Source: Desulfobacterales bacterium | GTDB lineage: Bacteria > Desulfobacterota > Desulfobacteria > Desulfobacterales > JAFDDL01 | DNA length: 64,000 nucleotides | Assembly (NCBI GenBank): GCA_963677545.2 | Contig: CAXXKH010000045.1 | Coordinates: forward strand, 167,864 to 231,863 | Direction of reading: 5' to 3' | Part shown: positions 9,433 through 31,963 of the stretch, in pieces | How positions within the stretch are numbered: position 1 is the first letter of the stretch | Layout of the letters: each line of letters starts with the position of its first letter | The notes under the pieces: generated by a model | What the model saw: the letters and a program-made list of their open reading frames with translations, nothing else | Databases searched by the model: none | Told to the model about the DNA's origin: nothing | Translations under genes and position numbers: made by a program

Positions 9433-9508
9433 TCCCCAGTAGCTCAGTCGGCAGAGCAAGTGGCTGTTAACCACTGTGTCCGCGGTTCAAGTCCGTGCTG
9501 GGGAGCCA
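9433..9508 (+). tRNA. tRNA-Asn (anticodon GTT), intact, with encoded CCA
   Basis: Manual cloverleaf: acceptor TCCCCAG/CTGGGGA, D arm GCTC-AGTCGGCA-GAGC, anticodon arm AGTGG-CTGTTAA-CCACT, T arm CGCGG-TTCAAGT-CCGTG, discriminator G plus CCA. Confidence 0.9.
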
Positions 9509-9515
9509 AATATAG

Positions 9516-9548
9516 AGCCCGATCAATTCTGGTCGGGCTTTTTCTTTT
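9516..9548 (+). terminator. rho-independent terminator after tRNA-Asn, repeated at 9883-9915
   Basis: Stem agcccga/tcgggct followed by the T-rich tract ttttcttttc. An identical copy sits 367 bp downstream. Confidence 0.65.
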
Positions 9549-9561
9549 CACCGAGCATGCC

Positions 9562-9837
9562 ATGTCATTTTGCGTTTACATTCTCCAAAGTCAATCCAAC
9601 GGCCGTTTCTATTGTGGGTATTCTGATGATCCTGTACGTCGTCTCCGGCAACACAATGACCCCGAGTATCGACTATCCAGAACAACGAAAGTGATCCAAG
9701 GCCCATGGAAAATTGTTCATACAATTCAATGTGAAACCAGAAGCCAAGCCATGAATTTGGAAAAGCGCGTTAAAAAGCGTGGCATTAAAAGATTCCTTGA
9801 AACAGCATCGGCAGAGTCCCGCTTAAAGCGGGATTAA
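9562..9837 (+). CDS. small GIY-YIG nuclease family protein (copy 1, Cys at codon 4)
   Basis: 91 aa: FCVYILQSQSNGRFYCGYSDDPVRRLRQHN ... E..VKKRG, the pattern of small GIY-YIG (COG2827-like) proteins. The TAA stop lies in the following tRNA-fragment copy. Confidence 0.8.
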   Translation: MSFCVYILQSQSNGRFYCGYSDDPVRRLRQHNDPEYRLSRTTKVIQGPWKIVHTIQCETRSQAMNLEKRVKKRGIKRFLETASAESRLKRD

Positions 9838-9928
9838 CCACTGTGTCCGCGGTTCAAGTCCGTGCTGGGGAGCCAAATATAGAGCCCGATCAATTCTGGT
9901 CGGGCTTTTTCTTTTCACCGAGCATGCC

Positions 9929-10204
9929 ATGTCATTTTACGTTTACATTCTCCAAAGTCAATCCAACGGCCGTTTCTATTGTGGGTATTCTGATGATCCT
10001 GTACGTCGTCTCCGGCAACACAATGACCCCGAGTATCGACTATCCAGAACAACGAAAGTGATCCAAGGCCCATGGAAAATTGTTCATACAATTCAATGTG
10101 AAACCAGAAGCCAAGCCATGAATTTGGAAAAGCGCGTTAAAAAGCGTGGCATTAAAAGATTCCTTGAAACAGCATCGGCAGAGTCCCGCTTAAAGCGGGA
10201 TTAA
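9929..10204 (+). CDS. small GIY-YIG nuclease family protein (copy 2, canonical FYVYIL)
   Basis: Identical to copy 1 except Tyr at codon 4. It has the same position within the 367-bp unit. Confidence 0.8.
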   Translation: MSFYVYILQSQSNGRFYCGYSDDPVRRLRQHNDPEYRLSRTTKVIQGPWKIVHTIQCETRSQAMNLEKRVKKRGIKRFLETASAESRLKRD

Positions 10205-10242
10205 CCACTGTGTCCGCGGTTCAAGTCCGTACTGGGGAGCCA
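10201..10242 (+). pseudogene. displaced tRNA-Asn 3-prime half, probably the original one
   Basis: The 42 nt are identical to 9467-9508 except G to A at 10231 (T-stem position). It has no matching 5-prime half and is followed by a different terminator. Confidence 0.8.
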
Positions 10243-10252
10243 ATATATTAAA

Positions 10253-10420: not shown

Positions 10421-10606
10421 AAAGGTAAAAATCGCTCCGGGAACGGGTGCGGTCTGATTTCTTTAATTCGTGCTAAGGTCTTCACTCGCCCTAGGCGATT
10501 TTTGTCTGTTCAGGATCGTCACTTCAGAGCGCAGAATGATCCCAATCTAATCTTATTGCCGCGCTGCGACGGTGACGCCCTGGGATTGATCCGCCTGTTT
10601 CGCGGA
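10421..10606 (+). repeat. 185-bp intergenic repeat, copy 1
   Basis: Near-identical to 14805-14989. Its 3-prime ~85 nt also recur at 31964-32047. Confidence 0.9.
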
Positions 10607-10632: not shown

Positions 10633-10667
10633 TTGACAATTCGAAAACTTATCGTATGATATATCAT
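10633..10667 (+). promoter_or_regulatory. sigma70-like promoter with an overlapping palindromic operator
   Basis: TTGACA (10633-10638), 16-nt spacer, TATGAT (10655-10660). A perfect 12-bp palindrome ATGATATATCAT (10656-10667) overlaps the -10 box. Confidence 0.55.
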
Positions 10668-10733
10668 CTGATAAATCGCGTGATGTAAACCCTAATCCAT
10701 CAGGCGCTCCCATTCACTAAAAGGATAATTGCC

Positions 10734-10961
10734 TTGAATACTGAAACCGATATTTCCCTATTGATCCGTGAGCTTCGGGGACGAACAGGGCTAACCCAAG
10801 AGAAATTCGCTGCTAAGCTAGGGGTCACATTCCCCACAATCAACCGCTGGGAAAACGGCCGGGCCAAACCCTCGCCCCTTGCCATGCAGCGTATAAAAGA
10901 ATTGTTACGAAGTATGGGTGACGGCGGTGTCGATTTGTTGAAACGTGTATTTAATAGTTGA
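10734..10961 (+). CDS. XRE-family helix-turn-helix transcriptional regulator
   Basis: 75 aa, TTG start preceded by AAGGA. LTQEKFAAKLGVTFPTINRWENGRAKP is a classic HTH_3 signature. Confidence 0.85.
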   Translation: MNTETDISLLIRELRGRTGLTQEKFAAKLGVTFPTINRWENGRAKPSPLAMQRIKELLRSMGDGGVDLLKRVFNS

Positions 10962-10975
10962 GGTAAGGGGGATCA

Positions 10976-13627
10976 ATGGCCGAGAATTCAAAAAGACCTG
11001 ATCTATTCAAGAATGGCAGCAGTTGGGTACGCGCCGATTTCCATTTACATACCAAGGCCGACAAAGAATTCACTTTTACAGGTGACGAGAGCTATTATTT
11101 CTCGGACTATATTGATGGCTTAAACAAAGCCGATATACGGGTCGGGATTATTGCAAATCACAATAAATTTGATTTTGATGAGTTTAAGGCACTTAAAAAG
11201 ATAGCTAAGAAGCAGGACATTTTTCTGATCCCGGGCGTTGAACTTTCGGTGAACGATGGGAAAAATGGTATCCACACACTTGTGGCTTTTGGTGATCGAT
11301 GGCTGGAAAATGGAAAGGACTATATTAATCAGTTCCTGAATATCGCCTTCGAGGGAAAAACTCAAAGTGAGTATGAAAATGAAAATGGTCGCAGCTCGCA
11401 GGGTTTGATTGAAACGATTAAGCGGCTTGAAGGCTATCATAGAGATTTTTTTATTATTTACGCCCATGTGGAAGATAGAAGCGGATTATGGAATGAATTA
11501 GAAGGCGGCAGAATTCAAGAGTTGGGCAAAAATGAATTTTTTATCAGGCGGACATTGGCCTTTCAGAAAGTCAGAACACATGACGTGCCAGATAAAAAAT
11601 GCCGTGTAAAAGTCAAGAATTGGCTTGGGGATACATATCCGGCGGAAGTGGAAGGCTCGGACTGCAAATCAGTCGCTGAGATTGGCAAGGGCGGAGCCTG
11701 TTTTCTTAAAATTGGAGATTTCACATTCGAAGCGATAAAATACGCCCTCTCGGATCACCCGAACCGTGTTTCCATTCAACCACAAAAGCACGAACGTTCA
11801 AGGGTTGTCAGCGCAACTTTTGAAGGTGGCGTGCTTGGCAATCAGACAGTTAATTTTTCATCGGAGTTAAATACCCTGATCGGCATTCGCGGTAGTGGCA
11901 AGTCGTCTATTCTGGAAGCGCTTCGGTATGCACTGGATATTCCCTTCGGTGAAAAGGCGGAGGATTTGACATATAAAAAAGAACTCCCTGGCCATATGCT
12001 TGGCAGTGGCGGTAAAATAACGGTTCATGCCGTTGATCGACGCGGGCAACCATATGAGATCCGGCGAATTCTGAATGAACTCCCGGAAGTCTATATTGAC
12101 GGTGTTTTAAAGCCAGGTATTTCGATTCGCGAAACCATCGTCCACAAGCCCATCTATTTCGGTCAGAAGGATCTGTCCAGCACCGGGGAAGGCTTTGAAA
12201 AAGATTTGGTTGAAAAAGTCCTTGGGGGAAAGCTAACCGGTATTCGCGGGCGTATCGATTCCCAGCGTCAGAAGGTAATCGAATCCATTAGGCAACTCAC
12301 AAAACTGGCGCATACGGATGAGAAAAAGAAGGAGTATGAAGCAAAAAAGCAGGATGCCGAATTCCGTCTTAAACAATATAAAAAGCATGGTGTTGAAAAG
12401 AAGCTGGAAAAACAGGTCGATTTTGAAGTCGATTCCAGAAAATGTCGCCAGGTTATCGACCATGTGAATTCCTATTTGTCTGATCTGGACGATTTTATTT
12501 CCCGACATGAGGACGATTTACAAAATGAAAGCGTTTATCGTTCCAAACAGAATGACGCCTTTTTCACTGATTTTTTTACGATCTACACCAAACTGATAAG
12601 TGCCTTTGGAGAGATCAAAAGCGTCTATCAAAAAAGTCGGACAATTCTGGAAGAGATCCAATTAAAAGTCCAGGCGTTCGAGAAACTCAGGGACGGTCTC
12701 AAAGAGGAGTTCGCCGAAATCGAACGAAAATTGGCAGCCGAGCTGAAGGAGAGCGGCGTCAAAGCGATTAAACCGGACGAATTCCGTCAGCTCCGGAAAA
12801 CCGTTGATCAGTCCACCCAGATGATTTCCGCTTTGAATAAGCAAGAAAGTCAGAGACTATTGATGACCCAGATCCTTTGGCAGGAACTTGCCAAACTAAA
12901 TGAGCTTTGGCATGAGGAATTTAAAACCATCCAGGCGGAGTTGGAAAAGGTCAATCAGCGTCACGCATCTTTGGCCATTCAAGTTGACTATAAAGGCAAC
13001 AAAGAGGCATTTATAGCATTTATGAAGGATATGTTCAGGGGCAGCCGCGTCCGCGAAACTACTTTCGAAACTTTGGCCAACACTTTTTCCGACTTCGGTG
13101 ATATGTTCAAAGCATTCGATGCGACTAAATCCGTCGTTGGTTCGACAGCAGAAGCCTTTGAAAAATATTTTGAGAAAAATCTTCCGGCATTATTGACTTG
13201 GCAAGTACCCAATCGTTTCGTCATTACCTATCGAGAAAAAGAGCTGAAGCACCATTCCCTTGGGCAGCGGTCGTCAGCCTTGATCCTCTTTGTCCTCAGC
13301 CAGCAGGAAAACGATGTTATTATTATCGATCAACCCGAGGACGACCTGGACAATCAAACAATCTATGAAGATGTGATCAAACTGATTCGCAACCTGAAAC
13401 CTAAAACCCAGTTTATTTTTGCAACCCACAATGCCAATATTCCTGTCCTGGGCGATGCTGAACAAATTTTTGCCTGTACTTATTCAGATGACAAGATCGG
13501 TTTGGACACCGGCAGCATCGACGATCCGAATATGCAAAATAAGATTGTGACGATTATGGAGGGTGGCGAAGAAGCATTCAAATTGCGTAAAAGGATATAT
13601 GAAATATGGAAACCGCAGAGCTTCTAG
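10976..13627 (+). CDS. PHP-domain phosphoesterase fused to a coiled-coil ABC/SMC-like ATPase (Ppl-like candidate defence protein)
   Basis: 883 aa. N-terminal PHP-like motifs (RADFHLHTKAD, ANHNKF, PGVELS, YAHVED). Walker A GIRGSGKSS, then a long K/E/Q-rich coiled-coil. Signature-like SLGQRSS, Walker B IIIIDQPEDDLD, and ATHNANI. Confidence 0.75.
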   Translation: MAENSKRPDLFKNGSSWVRADFHLHTKADKEFTFTGDESYYFSDYIDGLNKADIRVGIIANHNKFDFDEFKALKKIAKKQDIFLIPGVELSVNDGKNGIHTLVAFGDRWLENGKDYINQFLNIAFEGKTQSEYENENGRSSQGLIETIKRLEGYHRDFFIIYAHVEDRSGLWNELEGGRIQELGKNEFFIRRTLAFQKVRTHDVPDKKCRVKVKNWLGDTYPAEVEGSDCKSVAEIGKGGACFLKIGDFTFEAIKYALSDHPNRVSIQPQKHERSRVVSATFEGGVLGNQTVNFSSELNTLIGIRGSGKSSILEALRYALDIPFGEKAEDLTYKKELPGHMLGSGGKITVHAVDRRGQPYEIRRILNELPEVYIDGVLKPGISIRETIVHKPIYFGQKDLSSTGEGFEKDLVEKVLGGKLTGIRGRIDSQRQKVIESIRQLTKLAHTDEKKKEYEAKKQDAEFRLKQYKKHGVEKKLEKQVDFEVDSRKCRQVIDHVNSYLSDLDDFISRHEDDLQNESVYRSKQNDAFFTDFFTIYTKLISAFGEIKSVYQKSRTILEEIQLKVQAFEKLRDGLKEEFAEIERKLAAELKESGVKAIKPDEFRQLRKTVDQSTQMISALNKQESQRLLMTQILWQELAKLNELWHEEFKTIQAELEKVNQRHASLAIQVDYKGNKEAFIAFMKDMFRGSRVRETTFETLANTFSDFGDMFKAFDATKSVVGSTAEAFEKYFEKNLPALLTWQVPNRFVITYREKELKHHSLGQRSSALILFVLSQQENDVIIIDQPEDDLDNQTIYEDVIKLIRNLKPKTQFIFATHNANIPVLGDAEQIFACTYSDDKIGLDTGSIDDPNMQNKIVTIMEGGEEAFKLRKRIYEIWKPQSF

Positions 13628-14769
13628 AGATAATTGCCCGAGATGAGGACAGCAAGCATCAGTTAAAGGCCGATTTCGCCAACGCCAAGGCACTGGCCGC
13701 CGAGTTGGTGGCCTTCAGTAACTCAGGCGGCGGCATCCTGATTGTCGGGGTAAATAAAGATGGTGCGTTTTCGGGTCTCACAAGGGACGATATGGGCCGA
13801 TTGAACCAGTTGATTTCCAATACCGCCTCCCAGATTGTCCGCCCGGCGATCAATCCTGAAACCGAAAATATCACCATGCCCGAAGGCTTGGTGATGGTTG
13901 TTCATGTCTCCGATGGCATCAGCAAACCTTATATGGACAAGGACGGAACCATATGGGTTAAAAGCGGCGCCGATAAAAGGAAAGCGACGTCGCGTGAAGA
14001 AATCCAGCGAATGTTCCAAAGCGCTAACCTCATCCATGGCGATGAGATTCATGCAGCCGGATTGACCGTAGCTGATTTAGATAGTGATTACTTTTGGGAT
14101 TTTTTTAGTAAACAGCATGGCCGGTCCGCGGATGATCTTGATATCGACCTGCCTCAGCTACTCACCAATATGAATCTGATGAAGGATGGGAGGTTGAATG
14201 TCAGCGGCGCGTTGCTATTTTCAAAAACTCCCAGCGTCAGATTGCCGGCATTCATTGTGAAAGCAATATCGTATCCGGGAACCGAAATCGATGTGGAGAA
14301 TTACATCGAAAGTCTGGATATTCCGGGAAAGCTTGAAGAAATCTACGATCAATGCATGAGCTTTGTACTGAGAAATATTAAGCATATTCAAATGGGCCAA
14401 GGGGTGAACACTACTGGAAATCCTGAAATCCCACGGATTGTTTTCGAAGAACTGATCGCCAATGCACTAATTCACCGGGACTATTTTATCTCTGCACCAG
14501 TAAAGATTTTTATCTTTCAGGATCGAGTGGAAATCATCAGCCCCGGGCACCTGCCAAATAACTTGACCATTGAAAACATCAAACTCGGCAATTCAAATAT
14601 TCGAAATCCGATTCTGGCTTCCTATGCAACCCGGATTTTGCCCTACCGCGGCATTGGAAGCGGCATCATCAGAGCGCTTAAGGTATTTCCGGATATTCAT
14701 TTCGAGGATGACCGAGATGGGAACCAGTTCAAAGTCTTTATTAAAAGAGTTTCCTTTGAGCAGGAATAA
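13606..14769 (+). CDS. Schlafen/AlbA_2-type (divergent AAA) domain protein with HATPase_c_4-like C-terminal domain
   Basis: 387 aa. ELVAFSNSGGGILIVGVNKDG and ISKPYMDKDG..WVKSG (AlbA_2 pattern); ELIANALIHRDY (HATPase_c_4 pattern). It overlaps the upstream gene by 22 nt. Confidence 0.7.
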   Translation: METAELLEIIARDEDSKHQLKADFANAKALAAELVAFSNSGGGILIVGVNKDGAFSGLTRDDMGRLNQLISNTASQIVRPAINPETENITMPEGLVMVVHVSDGISKPYMDKDGTIWVKSGADKRKATSREEIQRMFQSANLIHGDEIHAAGLTVADLDSDYFWDFFSKQHGRSADDLDIDLPQLLTNMNLMKDGRLNVSGALLFSKTPSVRLPAFIVKAISYPGTEIDVENYIESLDIPGKLEEIYDQCMSFVLRNIKHIQMGQGVNTTGNPEIPRIVFEELIANALIHRDYFISAPVKIFIFQDRVEIISPGHLPNNLTIENIKLGNSNIRNPILASYATRILPYRGIGSGIIRALKVFPDIHFEDDRDGNQFKVFIKRVSFEQE

Positions 14770-14804: not shown

Positions 14805-14989
14805 AAAGGTAAAAATCGCTCCGGGAACGGGTGCGGTCTGATTTTTCTAATACGCGCCAGGGTCTTCACTCGCCCTACGCGATTTTTGTCTGTCCAGGGC
14901 GTCACTTCAGAGCGCAGAATGATCCCAATCTAATCTTATTGCCGCGCTGCGACGGTGACGCCTTGGGATTGATCCGCCTGGTTTGCGGA
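14805..14989 (+). repeat. 185-bp intergenic repeat, copy 2
   Basis: Direct repeat of 10421-10606, 4384 bp downstream, with scattered substitutions. Confidence 0.9.
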
Positions 14990-19022: not shown

Positions 19023-20276
19023 TTAAAAATCACTAAAATCCTCGTTATCCATTGTTATGATCTTTTGAGGGGATATCTCATTTCCCGACTGTGTGTCCTT
19101 TCGAACATCAGAAAGCCTTTTTACCCTGTCAGCCACCTTCTTTTCAGCTTTTTCCGCGGATAGTCCGCTGGCTTCAAGCATCGTGCCTTCGATGTGCCGG
19201 ATCGCCTGATTAAGTTGTTCAATTCCCATGGCCTGTTCCTGTGAGGCATTCTTAATATCGCCGAACATTTTGGCAACACGTCCAATTTTTTCGGACATTC
19301 CATCGAATTCGGCATTATTTGTTTCCACCAGTGTGTGTCCTGACTTGATTTTATTAACCGTTCCCTCAATTAGCACTGCAGTGTTTTTAGCTGCTTCCGC
19401 TGCACGCATAGCCAAATTTCTCACTTCATCTGCCACCACGGCAAACCCGGCACCTGCTTCTCCCGCGCGAGCGGCTTCTACCGCGGCATTCAAGGCAAGC
19501 AAATTTGTTTGGAAGGCGATTTCATCAATAGTCTTTATTATTTTGGATGTTTCCTCGCTTGATTTTGAAATATCCTCCATGGAATCGGTAAGGGCTTCCA
19601 TGTTTGCTTGGGATTTATCCACGCTCCTATTCGTCTCGGACATCAGACCATCCGCACTTGCCGCCAGATTCGCTGTATTTTTAGTGACGGCAGATAGCTC
19701 TTCAAGTGATGCTGAGGATTCTTCAAGAGATGCCGCCACATTACCTATCATGTCTTGCAGTCGATGCTCAGCGTCTATGTCGGTCACCATCTCAACATGC
19801 CCGATCGGTTTGCCCTTGTCATCATGGATATAAGCGGTATCCACCTGCATGTACGTACTCGGTTTGTCGGGATATTCCTGGTTGTAATTTGTTCTAGGCT
19901 GTCCCTTGCGAAGGCTAGCAATGCCACAATTTTCAGTACCACAGATATCTGCCTTCCAATTCGAGCAATGCTTGCCCAGGCAGCTTTTTTTATCAAGATT
20001 ATGCATGGCAAGCAGGCTTTCGGTCACCTTGTTTATAAAGACCCAGTTCATATCCATGTCTGTCACGGTAATGGGTAAATGTACGGCATCGAGCGAGCCT
20101 TCAAGGTAGAACATCCGTTTACGATGTTTTGCAGCTGTTCGATATGAAACAATCCCCAAAACAATGGTCAACAACAACACTGCCAACAAATAAATATTCC
20201 AGTCATTAAAGAGTGTTAATGAAATAGCTATGGCAATGACAAGGTAATTCGCCCCGATTTTTTTTTGAATAGACAT
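19023..20276 (-). CDS. methyl-accepting chemotaxis protein
   Basis: 417 aa with an N-terminal TM region and a Cys-rich sensor segment. The highly conserved signalling hairpin [38 protein letters not shown] is present. Confidence 0.9.
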
Positions 20277-21173
20277 AGTGGTTTCCTTTAAATTAGGAAG
20301 GTTTTGTCGTTATCTCACCTTTCGGGTTTATCCATTAATAGTGCCTTTATACCCCATTTTAACTGGAAACTGTTGTGCCTGACAATAACAAAATTGGTAT
20401 CAACCCAATTGGAAGTATCCTAATGGATGTCAAACTCTAAAATGCTTATATCATTTTCTTGAATATCACTATGAAATGGTCTTGGTAGATCAGAGTGCAT
20501 CACACGGTTTTGAGGCATCCAAACCTTGGACTACCTTGTGCCACACGTGCAAGCAGACAACTCTTTCTCACACCACTACATATTGTGGCCAGTTCATCGG
20601 CTCTTTGATTGTGATATCAAAAAGCCCGAATTCGCCTTTTCGGGCTTTTCTGTCCTTTGGCAATGTCATAATGCCAAAAGCCGAACAAGGATTTTTCTTT
20701 GGGAATTATATGGGAATGAAAGGAATAAAAAGATTATCAATCACAACATAAAGTGAGATAATCACAGAATGACAGATTAAATAGAAATCTTCGAATATTT
20801 GGCTGAATTTTCATTTGTGTTTTTTAAAGGCTGCATGCATTCCACCCATAATTCCATTGGTCTTGTTAAAATTCAGCTCCACCAAACGCGTCAAAATGCC
20901 ATGTTGTACATTATTTCGCTAAGTTTGATCTTGGTTATGTGACACAAACTAATGAATAGGATAATTATCATTGAATTCCTTTGCATGGGATTTTTTAACA
21001 GGGGCTATTCTAAGAAACTCAGCTTGCCTGTTTTTTCCAGACATATCATCGGATTTCATGGCATGCAAAAATCCAATCACATGATTTTTACATTATTTGC
21101 TATTTTTTTGTGATAAAATATCTTAAAGATTTCGGCTAATAAATATATTCATGACATACAGGAGGTTAACCTT

Positions 21174-22988
21174 TTGTCAAAAAAGCCAACATATCAAGAA
21201 TTGCTAAATCGGATTAAAAATTTAGAACAAAATCAGGCCGAACTTGAAAAATCAGACAATTACCTGACGAAATTATTTTCTATGCTGTTCGACATGGTTT
21301 TCATCATAGATTTGAAAACAGACTGTTTTATCAAGGCAAATAACACCGTCAACAAAACACTCGGTTATTCGGCGAACGAACTCGTTGGAAAATCAGTTCA
21401 TTATTTCATCCATCCCGATGACTTACAGGCCACTATTGCAGTATTAGAAAACAAACTAAAAAAAGGCATCGAGATAATAAATCTTGAAACCCGATATTTA
21501 TGTAAAAACGGCGAGTATCGATGGCTAAGTTGGACGGCACACCCAAATATAGAAGAGGAAATTGCTTATACTGTTGCCAGAGATATTACTGAATTAAAAG
21601 ATATAAAAAATAAAATCCAGATTAGTGAAAAAAAATATAGGGGGCTTTTCAATTCGTCAAATGAGGGGATCTGTCTTCACGAATTGATATACAAAGACAA
21701 CCATCCTGTTGATTATCGTATTCTTGATGCCAATCCAAAATACGAAAAGATGACTGAGATTAAAAGGGAGGATGCAATAGGTGCTCTTGCATCTGATCTC
21801 TACAAAACCGGAAAGGCTCCTTATTTGGATCAATACGCTGAAGTAGTCAAGACAGGGGAACCATCTTCCTTTGAAAACTATTTCCCACCTATGGATAAAC
21901 ACTTTCTGATATCTATTTTTTCACCCGCCCCACATCAATTTGCCACTGTTTTCCAAGACATAAGTAATCGGAAACATATCGAAAGAGCATTGATGGAAAG
22001 TGAAAATCGGTACAAAAGCCTCTTTCAAAACAACCATGCTGTGATGCTACTCATTGATCCTGAAAATGGGGAAATAATAGATGCCAATCCCGCTGCTCTC
22101 ACTTATTATGGATATCGGTTCAATGAGCTAATCGGAAAAAAAATATATGATATCAACACACTGACAGAAGCTGAAATATATATAGAAATGAATAGGGCCA
22201 GGAAAGAGGTCCGAAATATTTCTTATTATCGTCATCGCCTTGCAGATGGAGATATCCGCGATGTTGAAATATATAGCGGGCCGATTCTCATCCATAGTAA
22301 ACAATTATTATTTTCCATAATCCACGATATCACCGAGCGCAAAAAGGTTGAAGATGCGCTGAAGGATGAAATCTGGCAGCGACGGATTTTGGTGGCACAA
22401 TCCAGAGATGGAATCGTAGTCATCGACAATAACGGAGGCGTTGTGGAGGCCAACCAAAAATACGCAGACATGCTTGGATATTCTCTGAGTGATCTTTTTC
22501 ATCTTCATATCTGGGACTGGGATAGTCAATATACAAAGGAAGAACTGCTTCAAAAAATATGCACCATAGGCGAAGCAGGAGACCACCATAAAACACGTCA
22601 CCGCCGTAAGGACGGGAGTATGATTGAGGTGGAAATCAGTTCCAACGCGGCCTTCTTCGGGGAGAAAAAACTCATATTCTGTGTGTGCCGGGATATCACC
22701 GAACGGAAGCATGCCGAAGAAGAGCGGGAAAAACTGATAAAGGAACTGCAAAATGCCCTGGCAGAAATCAACACTCTGCGCGGGATTCTCCCAATATGTT
22801 CTTCCTGCAAAAAGATCCGGGACGATAAGGGATACTGGAATCAGATCGAGACATACATACACAAGCATTCCTTGGCGCAATTCAGCCATGGGATTTGTCC
22901 CGACTGCGCGAAAAAACTTTATGGAGACCTGTACGAAGAGATTCCCCCATTGCAGAACGCAAATAACACTGAGGAGGATGGATCTTGA
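21174..22988 (+). CDS. multi-PAS domain protein with a C-terminal Cys/His-rich module
   Basis: 604 aa, TTG start 8 nt after AGGAGG. It has several PAS repeats and a C-terminus ILPICSSCKKIRDDKGYW....HGICPDC. No kinase or cyclase domain is present. Confidence 0.8.
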   Translation: MSKKPTYQELLNRIKNLEQNQAELEKSDNYLTKLFSMLFDMVFIIDLKTDCFIKANNTVNKTLGYSANELVGKSVHYFIHPDDLQATIAVLENKLKKGIEIINLETRYLCKNGEYRWLSWTAHPNIEEEIAYTVARDITELKDIKNKIQISEKKYRGLFNSSNEGICLHELIYKDNHPVDYRILDANPKYEKMTEIKREDAIGALASDLYKTGKAPYLDQYAEVVKTGEPSSFENYFPPMDKHFLISIFSPAPHQFATVFQDISNRKHIERALMESENRYKSLFQNNHAVMLLIDPENGEIIDANPAALTYYGYRFNELIGKKIYDINTLTEAEIYIEMNRARKEVRNISYYRHRLADGDIRDVEIYSGPILIHSKQLLFSIIHDITERKKVEDALKDEIWQRRILVAQSRDGIVVIDNNGGVVEANQKYADMLGYSLSDLFHLHIWDWDSQYTKEELLQKICTIGEAGDHHKTRHRRKDGSMIEVEISSNAAFFGEKKLIFCVCRDITERKHAEEEREKLIKELQNALAEINTLRGILPICSSCKKIRDDKGYWNQIETYIHKHSLAQFSHGICPDCAKKLYGDLYEEIPPLQNANNTEEDGS

Positions 22989-23583
22989 TGGTCATTAATA
23001 GTTTTATTAGTATTAACTAATAGTTAATTAAGGATATAAATCAATATCAAGGATTTTTACTGAAAAAATGCGCTTTTTTTTAGACAGAAAATTTTTCATG
23101 ATTTGATTTTTGCTTAAATTAGTCAAGCGGCCCATACTGTATCATCACAATATTCTGTTTTAGCATGCAAAACAGCAAATCAAAGTGTCTTATATTTGGT
23201 GGCCAAATCCCATCTCAATAGATTACACACACTGAAATCCTTTTAACTTATTTACTGCCGTGGCTATGAAATGAATGTAATAGGGCTTATGAAATTGATT
23301 TCCCATATCTATCCAAATCATATAATATCTCCATGAAAGGAAATGCAATAACAAACTGTATTTATTCATGTATTACACCTATGCTCTAAACTTGCATGAT
23401 ATTTGCTTTTAATTACTAAATTGGAATTCGCCTTTCATTGTTTTTCCTGAAAAAAACAACTGAATACATCTGATTAATTTAAAAAAAAGGCCGTTGCCTC
23501 TCCGATTGAACCGGTGCAATGATTTGTTTTTCTTGCGGTAATATTTATGGATTGTTCTCTCTGCTGTTCAGAGGTGTTCCCAG

Positions 23584-25743
23584 ATGAAGAAATACGCTTT
23601 CCTGTTTTGTTCAGTACCAATTGGAATCACTTTTTTTGGTATAATGTTTACTCTTATTCGAACATTCTATTACACGGCATTTCCATTATTACAGGAATAT
23701 ATTTTCCCATTGTTATTAGGTACTTTCTTTGGAGCAGGTATAGGATTGTGGCGAATCCAGACTAATGAAAAAAATGAAAGGCTTGAAATAACTGCCTTTG
23801 AATTGAGCATTGCTAACACAGAGCTTAAAAGAAAGAATCAAAAGCTGGAAAAGGTCCAGGTTAAACTGCACAGCCTTCTTGACAATATCATCGATTTTGT
23901 GTGGCTTAAGGATGTCGATGGCGTTTATCTGTCATGCAATCCCAGGGTTATACAATTTTTCGGAGCAAAAGAATCAGAAATTGTCGGACGAACCGATTAT
24001 GATTTTGTTCCCAGAGAATTGGCAGATTTCTTCCGCCAAATGGATAAAGAAGCCATAGATGCTGATATACCGCAAAAAAATAAGGAATGGATTACGATGG
24101 CATCTGATGGCAGCCGTATCTTGCTTGAAACTGTAATAAAACCTATTAAGGACAAAAATGGAAAGATTATAGGAATTCTTGGAATTGGACGCGACATCAC
24201 TGCCCTATACAACGCCGAAACAACATCGCACGATGCAAAAGAAAATTTCCAGGCTATCTTCGAGAACATGGCTTTGGGGTGCTGTATAGATGAAATTATC
24301 TATGATGAAACTGGATGTGCAATTGATTATCGGGTTCTTGATGTAAATCCAGCCTATGAGAAATTGATAGGAATAAGCAGGACTCAAGCAGCCGGGTCAC
24401 TTGCTTCTGCTCTTTACGGCTATGGCACAGCACCCAATATTGATATTTACGGCAAAATTGATGAAACCGGAGAGCCTGTTACATTTAAAGCCTTTTTCCC
24501 ACCAACAAAAAAGCATCTGCTTATTACAGCTTCTCGAGTTACAAAAGGCAGATTCTGTACATTATTCTCGGACATCACAGAACAGATCAACTTAGAGGGG
24601 CAGTTGCAGCAGGCCCAAAAGATGGAATCTGTCGGGCGATTAGCAGGAGGTGTTGCACATGATTTTAATAATATGCTTGGAGTTATTCTCGGTCATGCTG
24701 AATTAGCCACGAATAAAATAGATCCTGATGATAAGCTCTATTCTCATCTGGAGGTAATAATTGACGCCTCCCAACGCTCTTCTGAAATCATTAAGCAATT
24801 GCTTGCTTTTGCCAGAAAGCAGACCATTAATCCGAAGATCATCAATATTAATTATAATGTGAAAAAGATGCTTAAAATGCTCCAACGCCTTATCGGAGAG
24901 AATATAGTTCTATTATACGAACCAAGAAAAGAACTGCACTCTGTCAAGATAGACCCTTCGCAGCTTGACCAAATTCTAGCCAATCTTTGTGTTAATGCAA
25001 AGGACGCTATTTCCGGCACGGGCAGAATAACTATCAAGACTGATAATGTTGTCCTTGATGAAACATTCTGTTCCAATAACCTTGGTTCAGTGCCAGGTAA
25101 ATACGTGCTTCTTGAAGTCTGTGATGACGGTTGTGGCATTGACAGTGAAACCATCAGCAAGATTTTTGAACCTTTTTATACAACAAAAGAAGCAGCGAAA
25201 GGTACAGGCCTTGGACTTTCTACTGTGTATGGCATTGTCAAACAGAATAATGGCTTTATATATGTTCAGAGCAAAATAGGGCAAGGGACAGCTTTCAATA
25301 TTTACTTCCCACAAAATATAGGAAAAACCACAAAATCAGAATCCACGAAAACAAATAAAATCCGATACAGTAGTGGAGAGACTGTACTGCTGGTTGAAGA
25401 CGAGCGGATTAATCTTGAAATGTATAGAGCAATTTTAGAAGAATTGGGGTATAATGTATTAACAGCCCGCAAACCGACTGATGCCCTGAAGATAGCTAAT
25501 AGCCATAGAGGAGATATTGACTTACTGATTACTGATGTCATTATGCCGGAAATGAACGGCAATGAATTATGTGCCCAACTTAACAATATATTTCCAAATA
25601 TAAAAACACTTTTTATGTCCGGTTACACAGACAATATAATTGCACATCAGGGCGTGCTTGAAGAAGGTGTAAATTTTATCCAAAAACCTTTTTTAACACA
25701 TGAATTCTCAATTAAAATCAGAGATGTCTTGGATAAAGGATAG
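23584..25743 (+). CDS. hybrid sensor histidine kinase / response regulator with PAS domains
   Basis: 719 aa: N-terminal TM segments, two PAS regions, H-box VAHDFNNML, HATPase (GTGLGLS), and a C-terminal receiver (LLITDVIMPEMNG). Confidence 0.9.
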   Translation: MKKYAFLFCSVPIGITFFGIMFTLIRTFYYTAFPLLQEYIFPLLLGTFFGAGIGLWRIQTNEKNERLEITAFELSIANTELKRKNQKLEKVQVKLHSLLDNIIDFVWLKDVDGVYLSCNPRVIQFFGAKESEIVGRTDYDFVPRELADFFRQMDKEAIDADIPQKNKEWITMASDGSRILLETVIKPIKDKNGKIIGILGIGRDITALYNAETTSHDAKENFQAIFENMALGCCIDEIIYDETGCAIDYRVLDVNPAYEKLIGISRTQAAGSLASALYGYGTAPNIDIYGKIDETGEPVTFKAFFPPTKKHLLITASRVTKGRFCTLFSDITEQINLEGQLQQAQKMESVGRLAGGVAHDFNNMLGVILGHAELATNKIDPDDKLYSHLEVIIDASQRSSEIIKQLLAFARKQTINPKIININYNVKKMLKMLQRLIGENIVLLYEPRKELHSVKIDPSQLDQILANLCVNAKDAISGTGRITIKTDNVVLDETFCSNNLGSVPGKYVLLEVCDDGCGIDSETISKIFEPFYTTKEAAKGTGLGLSTVYGIVKQNNGFIYVQSKIGQGTAFNIYFPQNIGKTTKSESTKTNKIRYSSGETVLLVEDERINLEMYRAILEELGYNVLTARKPTDALKIANSHRGDIDLLITDVIMPEMNGNELCAQLNNIFPNIKTLFMSGYTDNIIAHQGVLEEGVNFIQKPFLTHEFSIKIRDVLDKG

Positions 25744-26087
25744 GATTTTTCAAGATAAATTTAATGTGTAGATTAAAATATTGACAATTCTGCCAATAAT
25801 TACATGAACATGATGTATAAGCGGCAGTCTTATCTTGAAAAAAGGATGTATACGAAAAAATCGATTTAAAATGTGACACCCATATTTCTCAAAAACAAAA
25901 AACGTATAGAAGCTGTGATGTTACTATATTTTGTTGCTCTTATGATAGTTTCTCTTATTGAAAGATCCATTCGAATGAAAATGGAGAAAAAAAGGGTGTA
26001 GAAACTATCAATTCTTCCCCAAGGGATGAACACTGAAAAGCCAACATGGAATAACATAAGATACTTTTCGAAACATCCACTTGGCAG

Positions 26088-27564
26088 TCAATGTCATAAA
26101 GTTAACGGCAAGGCTTGTAATTCATGTAGTGCTCACGTTTACTAACTTTGTGTTTCCGTTTGAATTTTCGTCCTGGCCGAACGGGTTCGGTTGCCGCTGA
26201 AAATAATTCATGAAGGCCTTGGATTATTTTTACTACAATTTTGCGGGGCCTTTCAAAAAGCAAAAAGAGCGTATCTTTGGATTTTGAAAACACCTGCGTC
26301 ATGTTTAATTGATATTCATACTTTTTTTCTTTGCTTTCGCACTCTACAGACACCTGTGCTGGAGAAGAGAGAACAACAGCAAGATTTTTTGCAAGCACCT
26401 TTGAATGAAAATCCTGATAAACGGACAACTCGGATTGGCCCGAGAAATTGCCGACTTCGACACGCTCTTTCATGAAAAGGTAATCAACTTCTACCGGCCA
26501 ACGCTTGTGATATAGGTCTTTGAAAATTTCTTTTGGATATTTCTTTTTATCGGTAAGCGAAGTGATTAGAACTTCAATTTCGCCTGAATCGAGTTCAACC
26601 CGTATTAAGCGCAAGTGTAGTGGCGCAACATCCAAGCCCATCTCATTGCATTCTTTGATGGATTGATATGATGCATCAATATCAACAAAATCTTGATCAA
26701 GGCCGGATTCGATGAAGGTTTGAACAATCTTCCATTTATTGGAGATTCTGGCACAAAAATTACCGCCTTGAGATATAATGAGGTTGAAAACCCAGTAAGC
26801 CGGATAACCACGGTCCAATAAAAGAAGGTCGTTTGGGAGCAAGTTGAGCATATGATCTCGCAATAGTTCTCTTTCGCCGACATTGTATGGCTTTATGAAT
26901 GCCTCGATTGTGACTTTATTCAAAACATCAAATAATTGTGAAACACGAGCCATTGGGCATGCAGGTCCGTTCTTGGGTTTCATTACGCCAAAATGTTCTC
27001 GTATTTCTTGGTATTTAAAAAGTTTTAAAGTTGATCCATCTATTGCCAGTAAATTAAATCCATGCCATTTTTTGACGGTTTTGTAGTTGTTATAGAAAAA
27101 CTCAAGCAAGTGGCGGTTGAACTCTATAAATGCGGAATACTTGAGTTTCCTGCGTGCCAGTGAAAGAGCCATTTTGGTAACCAAGGCGACAGGGACATCT
27201 AATCGGAATGAAGCTTTAAAAAAGTGATCCAATTCGTCTTGGTATGATCCTTTAATGAAGTTTATGAAAAAGAGGAAAAGTGTTTGAAACGGCAGAGTTC
27301 GGTTTCGTGTAAAATCTTTTTCAGATTTTTTGTGCCGATTGACAAAGTCTTTTGAGTGAAGAATCTTCTTGAGATAATCAACAGTTTTGGCACATATCTT
27401 GGAAAGCAGGCTCCGTGCCAACATTGCTTTGCTTTTGAAGCGTTTCGGACATTTATTTCTCCTTTACGAAATGAATAATGCACGGTTAAAACTGGTGTCA
27501 GTATAGCATAATAAGCTAAAATATCAATAAAATTTAACTACTGCCGTTAACTTTATGACATTGA
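26088..27564 (-). mobile_element. IS4-family insertion sequence (1477 bp)
   Basis: Perfect 23-bp terminal inverted repeats (26088-26110 tcaatgtcataaagttaacggca; 27542-27564). It is flanked by an 8-bp target duplication cttggcag (26080-26087 and 27565-27572). Confidence 0.9.
26102..27424 (-). CDS. IS4-family DDE transposase
   Basis: 440 aa. LLAIDGSTLKL, LLLLDRGYPAYW and YHKRWPVEVDYLFMK (Y-R-E-K type motif). Confidence 0.85.
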   Translation of the reverse strand: MLARSLLSKICAKTVDYLKKILHSKDFVNRHKKSEKDFTRNRTLPFQTLFLFFINFIKGSYQDELDHFFKASFRLDVPVALVTKMALSLARRKLKYSAFIEFNRHLLEFFYNNYKTVKKWHGFNLLAIDGSTLKLFKYQEIREHFGVMKPKNGPACPMARVSQLFDVLNKVTIEAFIKPYNVGERELLRDHMLNLLPNDLLLLDRGYPAYWVFNLIISQGGNFCARISNKWKIVQTFIESGLDQDFVDIDASYQSIKECNEMGLDVAPLHLRLIRVELDSGEIEVLITSLTDKKKYPKEIFKDLYHKRWPVEVDYLFMKERVEVGNFSGQSELSVYQDFHSKVLAKNLAVVLSSPAQVSVECESKEKKYEYQLNMTQVFSKSKDTLFLLFERPRKIVVKIIQGLHELFSAATEPVRPGRKFKRKHKVSKREHYMNYKPCR

Positions 27565-27708
27565 CTTGGCAGTTGTTTTAAAAGACAACAAGGTTCCGAT
27601 ACAAGCTACGGTACAAGGGCTTTCCGACATACATAAAAAGATGTGTGACTTGATAGAAGTGCCAATGTCAACATATCAGAACCTTAAAGACATGTGGTAG
27701 TTGTTCGT

Positions 27709-27760
27709 GGGTTTTGGGACGTTGTTGACTAATTGGACTTATGCTGGTTTCTCTTAATTA
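27709..27760 (+). repeat. solo end of the HUH-transposase element (IR plus last ~30 nt of its ORF)
   Basis: gggttttgggacgttgttgactaattggacttatgctggtttctcttaatta matches 44384-44430, 42499-42550 and 28343-28393. Confidence 0.85.
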
Positions 27761-27835
27761 TGTATGTTTGACACCCCTCGGATTCGTGAGATAGATAGGA
27801 GATAGTTGCTTATTCTTCTCCGTCTCGCCCCAATT

Positions 27836-28228
27836 TTACCAAACGGTTTTTACATGGGAATATTTTAGGATTTTTTCATCTTTTGTAATAAGAGTTAAAT
27901 TGTTTACCCTAGCCGTTGCAACTATCAGCCTATCTACCGGATCTTTATGAAAATCTCCTGGCAAATTGCATACATCAATGGCTATTTGGGGGTTAATTTC
28001 AAGCACCCTTATGCCTGTTTTATCCAGCGCATATGAAAGCCACTCATCCGACGTGATCTTCATCTCAATTTTTTTTCTGCAAGCCATCATTGCAAATTCC
28101 CAAATTGAAATAGATGCAATGGCTCGTTGATCCGGAGTGGTTTTTTTAATTAATCGCGTTGCTCCCCTGGATAATTTTTCTGGTTCGCTCAAGCTCCACC
28201 ACCAGACATGCGTATCCAATAATATCAT
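27836..28228 (-). CDS. vapC: PIN-domain toxin (VapC-like), copy 1
   Basis: 130 aa from MILLDTHVWWW (TGATG overlap with the antitoxin stop). Acidic residues follow the PIN pattern (LLDTH, ..E.., ..D.., DPVDRLIVATA). Confidence 0.85.
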   Translation of the reverse strand: MILLDTHVWWWSLSEPEKLSRGATRLIKKTTPDQRAIASISIWEFAMMACRKKIEMKITSDEWLSYALDKTGIRVLEINPQIAIDVCNLPGDFHKDPVDRLIVATARVNNLTLITKDEKILKYSHVKTVW

Positions 28229-28340
28229 CAGACATTCTCCCAATCATCGCTATCAACAACAGGCTCAGTCAAATCCCCAACCGTGCGGCCTACACCGACA
28301 AGAGCCCCGATCAACGGATCTTTTGAGTTATCGGAATCGC
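28228..28340 (-). pseudogene. 5-prime-truncated Phd/YefM-type antitoxin gene (duplication junction)
   Basis: It encodes only the C-terminal ...DSDNSKDPLIGALVGVGRTVGDLTEPVVDSDDWENV. Homology to the full copy (31570-31751) stops at 28340, where the solo-end repeat begins. Confidence 0.75.
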
Positions 28341-28342
28341 AT

Positions 28343-28393
28343 GGGTTTTGGGACGTTGTTGACTAATTGGACTTATGCTGGTTTCTCTTAATT
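28343..28393 (+). repeat. solo end of the HUH-transposase element, second copy
   Basis: Same ~51-bp sequence as 27709-27760. Confidence 0.85.
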
Positions 28394-28522
28394 ATGTATG
28401 TTCAGGGTGATTTCGTTCTGTCATAAAAACAATAACAAATCGGAAAATTAGAGAAACTAATGGACAAAAGCCTTCGGATCGGCTATATGATTCACTATTG
28501 ATCATCTTATTCGGAGGTTGCA

Positions 28523-29593
28523 GTGTTCAATCTATTGGAAATCGATGTTCGTCCAGTTGTTACGAGTGAAGACCGCCTTTTTCAAAAATTGATGCAGGCG
28601 CATCACTATCTGGGCGCTCTGCCAAAAATCAGCGAAACCATTCGATATGTTGCTACGTTCGACAGCAATTGGATCGCCCTTCTTAGTTTCAGTGCTGCAG
28701 CTTTAAAATGCTCGGTTCGGGACCGTTGGATCGGATGGAAATCTCGCCATCAATATGATCGGCTCAAGCTGATTGCAAACAATAGTCGATTTTTGATCCT
28801 GCCTGAATGGCATTTACCGAACCTGGCCTCCCGTGTTTTGTCATTGTGCAGGAAGAGATTGCAAAGTGATTGGCAACGCACCTTTGGCCACCCTCTATTA
28901 CTGCTGGAGACATTTGTCGATCCCTTGCGCTTTCGAGGCACTATCTACAAAGCGGACAATTGGATCTACTTAGGCGATACCAAGGGTTTCCGGAGAACCC
29001 GGTATGGTTACAGCGCTACACCAAATTCTCCGAAAATGGTTTTCGTCAAATCCTTGATGCCTCGTGCCGCCATGTTGTTGTCTCAATCCGTGCTTAACCC
29101 ATCTTATCAAACCGGAGGCTCTAAAATTATGCTTACAGCTGACCAGATGCAGTCTTTACCTTACTTTTTTGAAAACATTCCCGATCCACGCCGAGCCCAG
29201 GGAAGACGTCATAAACTGCCTACGGTTTTGGCCATCGCCGCCGCGGCAACATTGTGCGGAATGCACGGATACCGGGCCATCTCGGATTGGGCTAAAAACC
29301 TTAGCCAAAGGGCCCGTCGGCGATTTGGCTGTCGCTATTACAAAGGCCGATTTGTTGTCCCCAGCCTGAGTATTATCCGTGACGTACTCATCCGTGTCGA
29401 TCCAACACATCTTGATGGTGCACTACAGCGTTGGAATAAGACGTATGCAAAACAGGACGAAAGCTTGGCAATTGACGGCAAAACAATGTGTAACGCCATT
29501 GATGACGAGGGACGTCAAATCCATATCATGAGCGCAATCGGTCATCAGAGCAAAACCTGCCACACCCAAAAAAAGTGGGTTTCCTCAATGTAG
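28523..29593 (+). CDS. ISAs1-like transposase, upstream frame (DUF4338-like N-domain plus N-terminal part of the DDE domain)
   Basis: 356 aa. HYLG...RYVA...WIALLSFSAAAL...RDRWIGW...NNSRFLILP...ETFVD (DUF4338-like), then FENIPDPRRAQGRRHKLPTVLAIAAAATLCG and LAIDGKT (ISAs1 pattern). Confidence 0.75.
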   Translation: MFNLLEIDVRPVVTSEDRLFQKLMQAHHYLGALPKISETIRYVATFDSNWIALLSFSAAALKCSVRDRWIGWKSRHQYDRLKLIANNSRFLILPEWHLPNLASRVLSLCRKRLQSDWQRTFGHPLLLLETFVDPLRFRGTIYKADNWIYLGDTKGFRRTRYGYSATPNSPKMVFVKSLMPRAAMLLSQSVLNPSYQTGGSKIMLTADQMQSLPYFFENIPDPRRAQGRRHKLPTVLAIAAAATLCGMHGYRAISDWAKNLSQRARRRFGCRYYKGRFVVPSLSIIRDVLIRVDPTHLDGALQRWNKTYAKQDESLAIDGKTMCNAIDDEGRQIHIMSAIGHQSKTCHTQKKWVSSM

Positions 29594-30303
29594 GCGACGA
29601 TGGCCTAAAGCGAACAAATGAAATCAATACCGCCATTCCAATGTTGGATGCCATCGACATTACGGGGAAAACCATTACAACCGATGCCCTGTTGACCCAA
29701 CGAAAAATCGCTTCTTATTTATTCGAACAGCGCCAAGCCCATTATCACTTCACCGTTAAAAACAATCACCCCGGACTTTATCAAGACATCGCATTGTACT
29801 TTGAAAACCGCCGGGAACCGGATTTTACACTCTGCGATCCTCCCGTCCATGGCCGCATCGAAGTTCGTAAAATCTGGACAACAACGGAACTCAACAACTT
29901 CCTTAACTTCCCTCACGTCGGTCAGGCTTTTGTCATCCAACGCGAGTCAACAAATAAAAAGACCGGAAAATATTCTTGCGAAGTTGCGTACGGCATTACA
30001 GACAAAACCCCGATGCAAGCTGATCCTCGGAACATCCTTGAAACAAATCGCGGTCACTGGTGTATTGAAAACTCATGCCATTATATTATCGATTGGAATT
30101 ACAATGAAGATCGAAGCCGTATACGCATCGGCCATGGCCCCGAAAACGTCACCCGCTTACGTCGTTTTGCCGTCGGTCTAATTAAATCCAAAGGCGTCCG
30201 CTCCGTTCCCCAAAAAATGGAACAGCTAAACCGCAATGTTCGTCTTGTTTTCGACTATCTGAGGATGACTAAAAATTCTGCTGTTTCTACTTGGCGTCTT
30301 TAG
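29575..30303 (+). CDS. ISAs1-like transposase, downstream (-1) frame, C-terminal part of the DDE domain
   Basis: 242 aa. TNEINTAIPMLDAIDITGKTITTDALLTQRKIA and HWCIENSCHYIIDWNYNEDRSRIR are typical of the ISAs1 family. It is reached from the upstream frame by a -1 shift at A_AAA_AAG (29569-29575). Confidence 0.75.
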   Translation: MGFLNVGDDGLKRTNEINTAIPMLDAIDITGKTITTDALLTQRKIASYLFEQRQAHYHFTVKNNHPGLYQDIALYFENRREPDFTLCDPPVHGRIEVRKIWTTTELNNFLNFPHVGQAFVIQRESTNKKTGKYSCEVAYGITDKTPMQADPRNILETNRGHWCIENSCHYIIDWNYNEDRSRIRIGHGPENVTRLRRFAVGLIKSKGVRSVPQKMEQLNRNVRLVFDYLRMTKNSAVSTWRL

Positions 30304-31751: not shown

Positions 31752-31963
31752 GATTTATACCTCCTATTAAGTGTACACATTAACACGTACACATAAAGGA
31801 TTCAACAAATTTCTGAATTATCTTGGACCCGGATTTCTGCAACTGATCATTTTATTTCATCCAGGTCCGAAATCGGGGTGACCGTGATGCTTGCCTTTTC
31901 ACGACAACGATTCATCGAAAACCGGTTGGAGAAGTTAGACCGTCATTAAAACCACTAAAGTCT

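Follow-up and report, generated by a model that had tools for sequence, protein, structure and literature searches.

The window analysed here, a stretch of 64,000 nucleotides from a Desulfobacterales bacterium (assembly GCA_963677545.2, contig CAXXKH010000045.1, positions 167,864 to 231,863), contains at positions 10633-14769 a compact operon of three genes that, judged by a curated family threshold and by its architecture, is a Desulfobacterales member of the TRL (temperature restriction locus; TrlR/TrlF/TrlG) family. The assignment was made because gene 2 passes the model of the TrlF family and gene 3 has the published domain layout of TrlG. The genes and the putative control elements in front of them are the following:

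10633-10660, + strand: sigma-70-like promoter, TTGACA-16 nt-TATGAT, agreeing at 11/12 positions; a consensus match only
10649-10674, no strand assigned: imperfect 26-bp palindrome TTATCGTATGATA/TATCATCTGATAA spanning the -10 box; candidate operator for the helix-turn-helix (HTH) protein
10734-10961, + strand: gene 1, 75 aa, TTG start with AAAGGA 5' of it
10976-13627, + strand: gene 2, 883 aa, starting 14 nt past gene 1, with AAGGGGGA 5' of the start
gene 2, about residues 17-265: N-terminal PHP phosphoesterase domain
gene 2, ATPase motifs: Walker A at 303-310 (G303-S310), Q-loop at Q397, signature at S761-R765, Walker B at D785-E788, H-loop at H818
13606-14769, + strand: gene 3, 387 aa

Genes 2 and 3 overlap by 22 nt, the ribosome-binding site of gene 3 (AAAGGA) being located within gene 2, and the promoter-like site, its position read from the sequence, lies 73 nt 5' of gene 1. 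An earlier note on this DNA, made from the letters alone, had given the three open reading frames (ORFs), the overlap and the promoter-like site exactly as they were found. Its reading of the products as an XRE-type HTH protein, a PHP phosphoesterase fused to an ATP-binding cassette (ABC) ATPase, and an AlbA_2 plus HATPase_c_4 protein was borne out by Pfam for the HTH, ATPase, AlbA_2 and HATPase parts and by motifs for the PHP part.

The region in front of gene 1 was compared with that of two close relatives of the locus, L004 and L083, which retain the 75-aa HTH. The window, L004 (about 2932-2962) and L083 (about 1845-1865) share an identical 20-nt block, TATCGTATGATATATCATCT, which overlaps the -10 box, while the non-coding DNA around it has diverged among the three. 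This block is the core of the 26-bp palindrome and itself contains a perfect 12-bp palindrome; the palindrome at 10649-10674 thus appears to be a good candidate operator for the XRE HTH protein.

Gene products and the temperature restriction locus of Photorhabdus

The product of gene 2 was matched by NCBIfam NF045780, 'TrlF family AAA-like ATPase', with 564 bits against a curated cutoff of 350 bits (E = 1e-168), the match running over residues 13-875 and positions 1-943 of the 944 of the profile. Pfam identified an ABC/SMC-type ATPase (AAA_21, 1.2e-11; SMC_N, 1.9e-7). No Pfam PHP model matched the protein, and the PHP domain was recognised from its ligand motifs, a weak CehA/McbA match (2.3e-4) and fold matches in a low-confidence model. 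The PHP ligands H23/H25, H62, E89, H100, H164 and D229, together with all ABC motifs, are at least 97% conserved in 84 homologues, including the copies of TrlF that stand without TrlG.

AlphaFold2 (AF2) models were built with close homologues only and had low values of the predicted local distance difference test (pLDDT 62 for gene 2; 66 for the second model), so that the fold searches support domain classes only. In the gene 2 model, long helices at 404-662, with more to about 740, form a coiled coil of 260-340 aa that splits the ATPase head; the helical insertion put at about 350 aa in the earlier note is thus present, but was modelled slightly shorter. The fold matches of this model comprise SMC, MukB, Rad50, RecF and JetC heads with coiled coils on the one hand and PHP enzymes (RNase AM, the PHP domain of Pol III alpha, 3o0f) on the other. 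A sequence search of the PDB gave no match for gene 2 and, for gene 3, only the uncharacterised 3lmm. Weak profile matches of gene 2 to AriA, GajA, PtuA and LmuB were confined to the P-loop and signature regions, none being at family level. The resemblance to Ppl pointed out in the earlier note was recovered as collinear matches to the NCBIfam Ppl equivalog NF042955 (E = 2.5e-46) and to the PADLOC Ppl model PDLC02208 (E = 1.9e-33; best stretch residues 715-871). Family membership itself fails the curated cutoff, as the NF042955 match amounts to 158 bits in three stretches against 1000 bits, and gene 2 was on this ground ruled out as a Ppl.

Gene 3 codes for an SLFN_AlbA_2 domain (PF04326; residues 14-127, E = 6.8e-19, 69 bits against a cutoff of 25.3) and a GHKL ATPase-like HATPase_c_4 domain (PF13749; residues 297-360, E = 6.7e-14). 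It therefore has the architecture of a Schlatpase, with Schlafen (SLFN) and GHKL parts in one polypeptide, a name given to the SLFN-GHKL supradomain of the Schlafen-containing prokaryotic Argonautes (SLFN-pAgo; Kuzmenko et al. 2026 preprint); Slfn-HisKinase is the commonest bacterial Schlafen architecture (PMC13056530). A VAFSN box is present, and in the N-box (281-293) and the G-rich boxes (312-353) residues E282, N286, H290-Y293, G314, G328, G349, G351 and G353 are invariant. The catalytic motif reads E14-x4-Q19-x-K21, not the published E-x4-(E/D)-x-K of prokaryotic Schlafens. Q19 is invariant in 72/72 TrlG sequences, the glutamine is retained in relatives lacking TrlF, and, among the nearest 50%-cluster representatives (P0241-P0390), it occurs in 80 of the 94 whose motif can be recognised, the glutamate form being found only in more distant ones. 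Judged by this motif, TrlG belongs to a large E-x4-Q-x-K clade of Schlafen-GHKL proteins. The annotation of TrlG as 'RecG-like' in the sources repeats a known misnomer (PMC7554251).

The TRL of Photorhabdus laumondii, trlR-trlF-trlG, restricts growth at 36 °C (Hapeshi et al. 2020, PMC7554251). In that organism trlR encodes a 79-aa putative regulator, trlF is annotated as 'histidinol phosphatase', and TrlG, mis-annotated as 'RecG', has its AlbA_2 and HATPase_c_4 domains at 14-128 and 298-365 (PMC7554251), as compared with 14-127 and 297-360 in the window TrlG. The view of the earlier note that a Schlafen-type partner and an HTH belong to no characterised system was thus wrong: the arrangement is that of the TRL operon, which is genetically characterised (PMC7554251) and has an NCBIfam family of its own. 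The syntenic example cited in the same paper, pYR3 of Yersinia ruckeri, likewise has a TrlF (53% match) and an overlapping TrlG.

All stable temperature-tolerant mutants of Photorhabdus had lesions in trlG and none in trlF, though trlF is 2.3x longer; moreover, deletion of the operon gave the trlG-mutant phenotype, complementation restored the arrest and the promoter was induced by temperature up-shift (PMC7554251). When compared by the published letters, 10 of the 11 missense residues are identical to residues of the window TrlG at an offset of 0 or -1. The matching positions (S16, V35, A36, A74, R79, R125, P317, S330, N334 and G353) lie in both the Schlafen and the GHKL domain, and A36, P317, S330, N334 and G353 are invariant in 75/75 family members. 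Since the loss-of-function substitution S16N falls in the catalytic motif, the Schlafen pocket matters for function.

Gene 1 is an XRE-type HTH protein (Pfam HTH_3, E = 1.4e-13) that may be considered the TrlR analogue by its place in the regulator slot. It has no similarity to the upstream ORF of pYR3, which PMC7554251 takes as the TrlR homologue and with which the comparison was made. An iterative hidden Markov model search found a recognisable XRE HTH abutting TrlF in only 6/75 loci; elsewhere a few loci have a ribbon-helix-helix (RHH) type protein, other small upstream ORFs could not be assigned, and several loci carry an HTH upstream of hsdR. A conserved TrlR was ruled out by this count, and the dedicated HTH named in the earlier note is not a constant part of the system. 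Because the HTH or RHH protein is variable and the pairing of TrlF with TrlG near-constant, the core consists of TrlF and TrlG, the regulator slot being filled by proteins that differ among lineages.

Distribution and genomic company of the TrlF-TrlG pair

A scan for TrlF in one genome per species gave at least 501 places with a TrlF relative, of which the best 80 were analysed. These belong to Desulfobacterota, Nitrospirota, Gamma- and Betaproteobacteria, Acidobacteriota, Planctomycetota, Bacillota, Bacteroidota, Chloroflexota and other phyla. Of the 79 loci with space for it, 77, drawn from more than 10 phyla, have a full-length TrlG 3' of TrlF with a conserved short overlap, and the co-occurrence of genes 2 and 3 as a coupled unit, anticipated in the earlier note, therefore stands. 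The exceptions are a Pseudogulbenkiania locus with a truncated TrlG and one locus without TrlG (L066). The TrlF of the latter adjoins a RhuM/PDC-S05 gene and type I restriction-modification (R-M) genes. In the reverse direction, starting from TrlG-like genes of metagenomes, TrlF was located upstream in 25/32 cases at 55% identity or more and in 1/37 below 55%. Among plasmids, TrlF was found in 238 records, 118 of them from E. coli, and a TrlG-like gene in 102. Individual loci to which the text refers are the following:

L001, 1134-12181: IncC plasmid pNDM102337, type I R-M operon with three genes embedded in it, HTH-hsdR-TrlF-TrlG-hsdS-PrrC-hsdM
L036, 8802-9038: truncated TrlG of Pseudogulbenkiania
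L082, 27-12851: BrxC-PglX-TrlF-TrlG-BrxHI
L085, 4992-7613: solo TrlF of E. coli pJJ1887-5, amid toxin-antitoxin and recombinase genes
L086, 5001-7589: solo TrlF of Listeria pCFSAN022990, amid toxin-antitoxin and recombinase genes

On the IncC plasmid the genes from hsdR to hsdM are joined by 4-nt overlaps and the cluster adjoins Tn7-like genes (TnsD). The pair is present in 38 of 5,426 complete E. coli genomes (0.7%), with hsdR, TrlF, TrlG and hsdS annotated in every match listed. In L082 and related loci it is positioned between PglX and BrxHI of a bacteriophage exclusion (BREX) system, and BREX genes were found in 11/80 loci altogether, the others being L006, L007, L009, L011, L024, L025, L029, L057, L067 and L078. 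Type III or MmeI-type enzymes, RhuM, integrases or resolvases are encoded in further loci. A small set of probes detected R-M or BREX genes within 6 kb in at least 32/80 loci; published figures for housekeeping genes, given as a yardstick and not as a matched control, are 0.13-0.19 defence genes within 10 kb (PMC13056530). Carriage by phages is rare, with seven weak or partial phage records for TrlF and two viral contigs bearing TrlG-like genes without TrlF.

Flanking DNA of the operon in the window

The operon is surrounded by the following features:

9433-9508: tRNA-Asn, with a tandem GIY-YIG array 3' of it
10421-10606, + strand: left direct repeat of ~185 bp (186 bp), a long hairpin then a T-run, terminator-like at 10486-10498
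14805-14989, + strand: right direct repeat (185 bp), 93% identity to the left copy, with hairpin and T-run

The flanking repeats of ~185 bp were thus present as described in the earlier note, and the hairpin and T-run of the right copy would serve as the terminator of the operon. Their 3' part of ~88 nt is a dispersed intergenic repeat (10517-10606 and 14900-14989) with a third copy at 31960-32047, the three copies being 88-97% identical. Since this part is dispersed and recurs elsewhere in the window, the flanking repeats are not an insertion-specific duplication. The 185-bp repeats were also considered as att sites or structured RNA; Rfam gave no match, the predicted folding was not significant (z = -0.3 to -1.8), and with a third partial copy in the window they were treated as a dispersed intergenic repeat.

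As the earlier note had stated, the operon is AT-richer than its surroundings and lies downstream of the tRNA-Asn/GIY-YIG array, its GC content being 0.43-0.47 as against 0.50-0.55 upstream and 0.58-0.65 downstream; further low-GC stretches are present elsewhere in the window. The neighbours of the operon are an HD-GYP/PAS protein, the tRNA/GIY-YIG array and a molybdopterin oxidoreductase. In an empty-site test, the nearest genomes with the flanking helicase (68-71% identity) were not syntenic. Of the proposal in the earlier note that the operon is an island-borne defence module, the defence part is supported by the context in other genomes (type I R-M/PrrC and BREX operons), but the island evidence in the window is thin, as there is no integrase and no adjacent defence gene and the repeat is partly dispersed.

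The array itself (9433-10243) consists of the tRNA-Asn gene followed by two identical tandem units of 367 bp, each composed of 43 nt copied from the tRNA 3' end, a terminator hairpin and an ORF for a 91-aa GIY-YIG protein (9562-9837 and 9929-10204), and of a third copy of the tRNA-Asn 3' end at 10201-10243. It looks as if a tiny GIY-YIG cassette had entered the tRNA 3' end several times in series. One of the other low-GC stretches (19500-29600; GC 0.33-0.45) carries, on the minus strand, genes for a methyl-accepting chemotaxis protein (19023-20276) and a DDE transposase (26102-27424); it further contains PAS-domain proteins, a hybrid histidine kinase (23584-25743) and an ORF (28523-29593) in which a DruA-like N-terminus is joined to DDE_Tnp_1_assoc.

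Possible function and comparison with known systems

The locus is best read as a self-contained, horizontally mobile, HTH-repressed module of defence (anti-phage or anti-plasmid) or abortive growth, in which TrlF is proposed as a DNA-directed exonuclease/ATPase of the Ppl kind and TrlG as an ATP-switched growth-arrest component; the probability given to this reading as a whole is roughly 0.55. The HTH protein would bind the palindrome over the -10 box and hold expression of the operon low. TrlF, presumably a metal-dependent PHP exonuclease joined to a Rad50/SMC-like coiled-coil ABC ATPase, might act on or sense DNA that is foreign or abnormal, for instance at free 3' ends, in the manner of Ppl. 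TrlG would stop growth; by analogy with SLFN-pAgo, the GHKL domain would bind ATP and drive oligomerisation of the Schlafen domain, which would engage RNA, probably tRNA. Since the second catalytic acid is replaced by an invariant glutamine, the chemistry of TrlG may differ from that of the published tRNases, or TrlG may bind without cutting. The role of TrlG as the arrest component is the best-supported of these steps, resting on the Photorhabdus genetics with mutations in both domains. What the sequence comparisons establish is the family membership, the tight coupling of TrlF with TrlG, the conservation of the motifs and the embedding in R-M/BREX operons. As for the core pair TrlF-TrlG, its genomic company suggests that it probably acts in defence.

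Several observations weigh against the defence reading. The only phenotype on record is a temperature-dependent growth arrest. No trlF mutants were obtained in Photorhabdus, which weakens a simple order in which TrlF senses and TrlG executes: as none were recovered in spite of the larger target, TrlF is not needed for the TrlG-mediated arrest on induction of the operon, and it may instead restrain TrlG or act in parallel. Q19 takes the place of an acid whose removal goes along with a nuclease-dead phenotype in two prokaryotic Schlafens from the literature, namely in the double mutant E15A/D20A of RorSlfn5 and in D32A of RzAgo. Single-gene Slfn-HisKinase constructs, similar to TrlG in architecture, gave no protection in E. 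coli (PMC13056530), although these may not have been TrlG-like or may have lost a partner. TrlF also stands alone, with all catalytic motifs intact, on many E. coli IncF (~48% identity) and on Listeria (38%) plasmids. There is neither an integrase nor a defence gene among the neighbours of the operon in the window, and the pLDDT of the two structure models is low (62 and 66). Finally, the PADLOC check proposed in the earlier note for the three proteins returned no complete system in PADLOC-DB v2.0.0, only partial matches to Ppl and PDC-M49A for gene 2, to the SLFN-GHKL part of a pAgo model for gene 3 and to a generic HTH for gene 1.

The absence of trlF mutants is also consistent with a different explanation, namely a stress-responsive growth-control or addiction module without immune function, in which induction by heat or other stress raises TrlG and leads to arrest, TrlF restrains or balances TrlG in an antitoxin-like way, and the cost of loss or imbalance ensures persistence on plasmids and islands. 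Loss of trlF would then be harmful whenever trlG is present; in addition, the sole experimental phenotype is indeed a temperature-induced arrest with promoter up-shift (PMC7554251), plasmid copies are found amid MazEF, VapB and partition genes, and the copy in the window is solitary and has a repressor of its own. Such a module leaves unexplained, however, why the pair has been spliced into type I R-M and BREX operons, with 4-nt overlaps and in many lineages, and an antitoxin of 883 aa with PHP and ABC catalytic motifs conserved in 84/84 homologues would be unusual. We consider this explanation rather unlikely, bearing in mind that many toxin-antitoxin-like modules are defence systems, so that it overlaps with the defence reading.

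The same splicing could mean that TrlFG is a non-autonomous accessory of R-M or BREX systems, a latent back-up that keeps watch on the host restriction complex and fires when a phage disables it, as PrrC does with EcoprrI, the window copy being either a remnant or in the service of an R-M system encoded elsewhere. The PrrC-like position between hsdR and hsdS/hsdM with 4-nt overlaps, the position between PglX and BrxHI in BREX loci, and the Schlatpases reported in type I R-M operons, both stand-alone and HsdS-fused, all accord with it. On the other hand, 48/80 loci have no R-M or BREX gene within 6 kb with the probes used, and the copies of the window, L004, L083, Photorhabdus and Pseudomonas plasmids stand alone, some with their own regulator. 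Because the type of the host system varies (I, IIG, III, BREX), a specific physical partner is argued against as well; such an accessory role is judged improbable. A housekeeping DNA-repair pair, with SbcCD/Rad50-Mre11-like end processing by TrlF and TrlG as a nucleic-acid-binding helper, could draw on the fold matches of TrlF to Rad50, SMC, MukB and RecF heads and PHP nucleases and on the 'RecG-like' annotation of TrlG, but is largely excluded by the patchy, mobile distribution (0.7% of complete E. coli genomes, many conjugative plasmids), by the viability of the whole-operon deletion in Photorhabdus with better growth at 36 °C (PMC7554251), by 'RecG' being a misnomer and by a GC content of the operon atypical for the flanking DNA.

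A bolder form of the defence reading can be put forward only tentatively: TrlFG might be a widespread but unrecognised two-protein immune system, found at 501 or more places, on IncC and other conjugative plasmids and in R-M and BREX operons, in which a Ppl-like PHP exonuclease/Rad50-like ATPase works together with a Q-type Schlafen-GHKL protein, and the latter, its active site being altered, acts as a nucleic-acid sensor or switch, or as a nuclease of new chemistry, rather than as a canonical tRNase, the temperature restriction of Photorhabdus being its autoimmunity. Among open-access papers and bioRxiv preprints, none was found that links TRL, TrlF or TrlG to phage defence or describes a system of a PHP-ATPase with a Schlafen-GHKL protein, nor do papers on embedded genes, DefensePredictor and component modularity name the TrlF-TrlG pair. 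The window locus is one more copy of a named family and sets up no new category. What is new to the searchable literature is the link between TRL, known only for limiting growth of Photorhabdus at 36 °C, and the same gene pair residing in R-M and BREX operons and on IncC plasmids of clinical importance. If TrlFG is a defence system, the Photorhabdus phenotype would be explained as autoimmunity, the single-gene Ppl would gain a partnered relative, and part of the largest class of bacterial Schlafens (Slfn-GHKL), so far without a phenotype, would acquire a function; the invariant change from E to Q in the catalytic motif moreover raises the question whether such Schlafens cut RNA.

In comparison with the TRL of Photorhabdus, the window operon shares the gene order of a small regulator, a PHP-ATPase of ~880 aa and an overlapping AlbA_2 plus HATPase_c_4 protein of ~385 aa, and the letters of the loss-of-function substitutions match the window TrlG mostly at conserved positions. 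It differs in its host, which a flanking core gene places in Desulfobacterales and which is not an enterobacterium, in an identity to the enterobacterial copies of about 53-56% for TrlF and about 60% for TrlG, in a 75-aa XRE HTH regulator unlike the upstream ORF of pYR3, and in its location next to tRNA-Asn, the Photorhabdus locus being situated between polA and dsbA.

The closest characterised relative of TrlF is Ppl (Gao et al. 2020), which has the same combination of PHP and ABC ATPase and the same length; the matches are collinear and strongest in the C-terminal ATPase half, and the PHP metal ligands and ABC motifs are conserved in TrlF. Ppl is a single-stranded DNA 3'-5' exonuclease: nucleoside triphosphates binding to both of its domains inhibit it, and nucleotide depletion together with 3'-OH ends activates it (review PMC12904381). 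Whereas Ppl acts alone, TrlF of the window clade has an obligate, translationally coupled partner. This partner resembles the prokaryotic Schlafen nucleases (Perez Taboada et al. 2026) and Schlatpases in its PF04326 and PF13749 pair, its SAFAN-like box (VAFSN), its invariant GHKL boxes and its association with R-M and BREX systems, but unlike the Schlafen nucleases and SLFN-pAgo it has no fused sensor (Ago, Ig-like or DUF262), but a separate partner protein, TrlF. With PARIS AriAB, Gabija GajAB, Septu, Lamassu, OLD and PrrC the pair has in common the logic of an ABC ATPase with a sensing insertion and a nuclease, and with PrrC also the embedding within type I R-M operons, where the two are found side by side. 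It is distinguished from these systems in that the nuclease fused within TrlF is of the PHP type and not TOPRIM, and in that its partner is a Schlafen-GHKL protein and not a helicase or TOPRIM protein.

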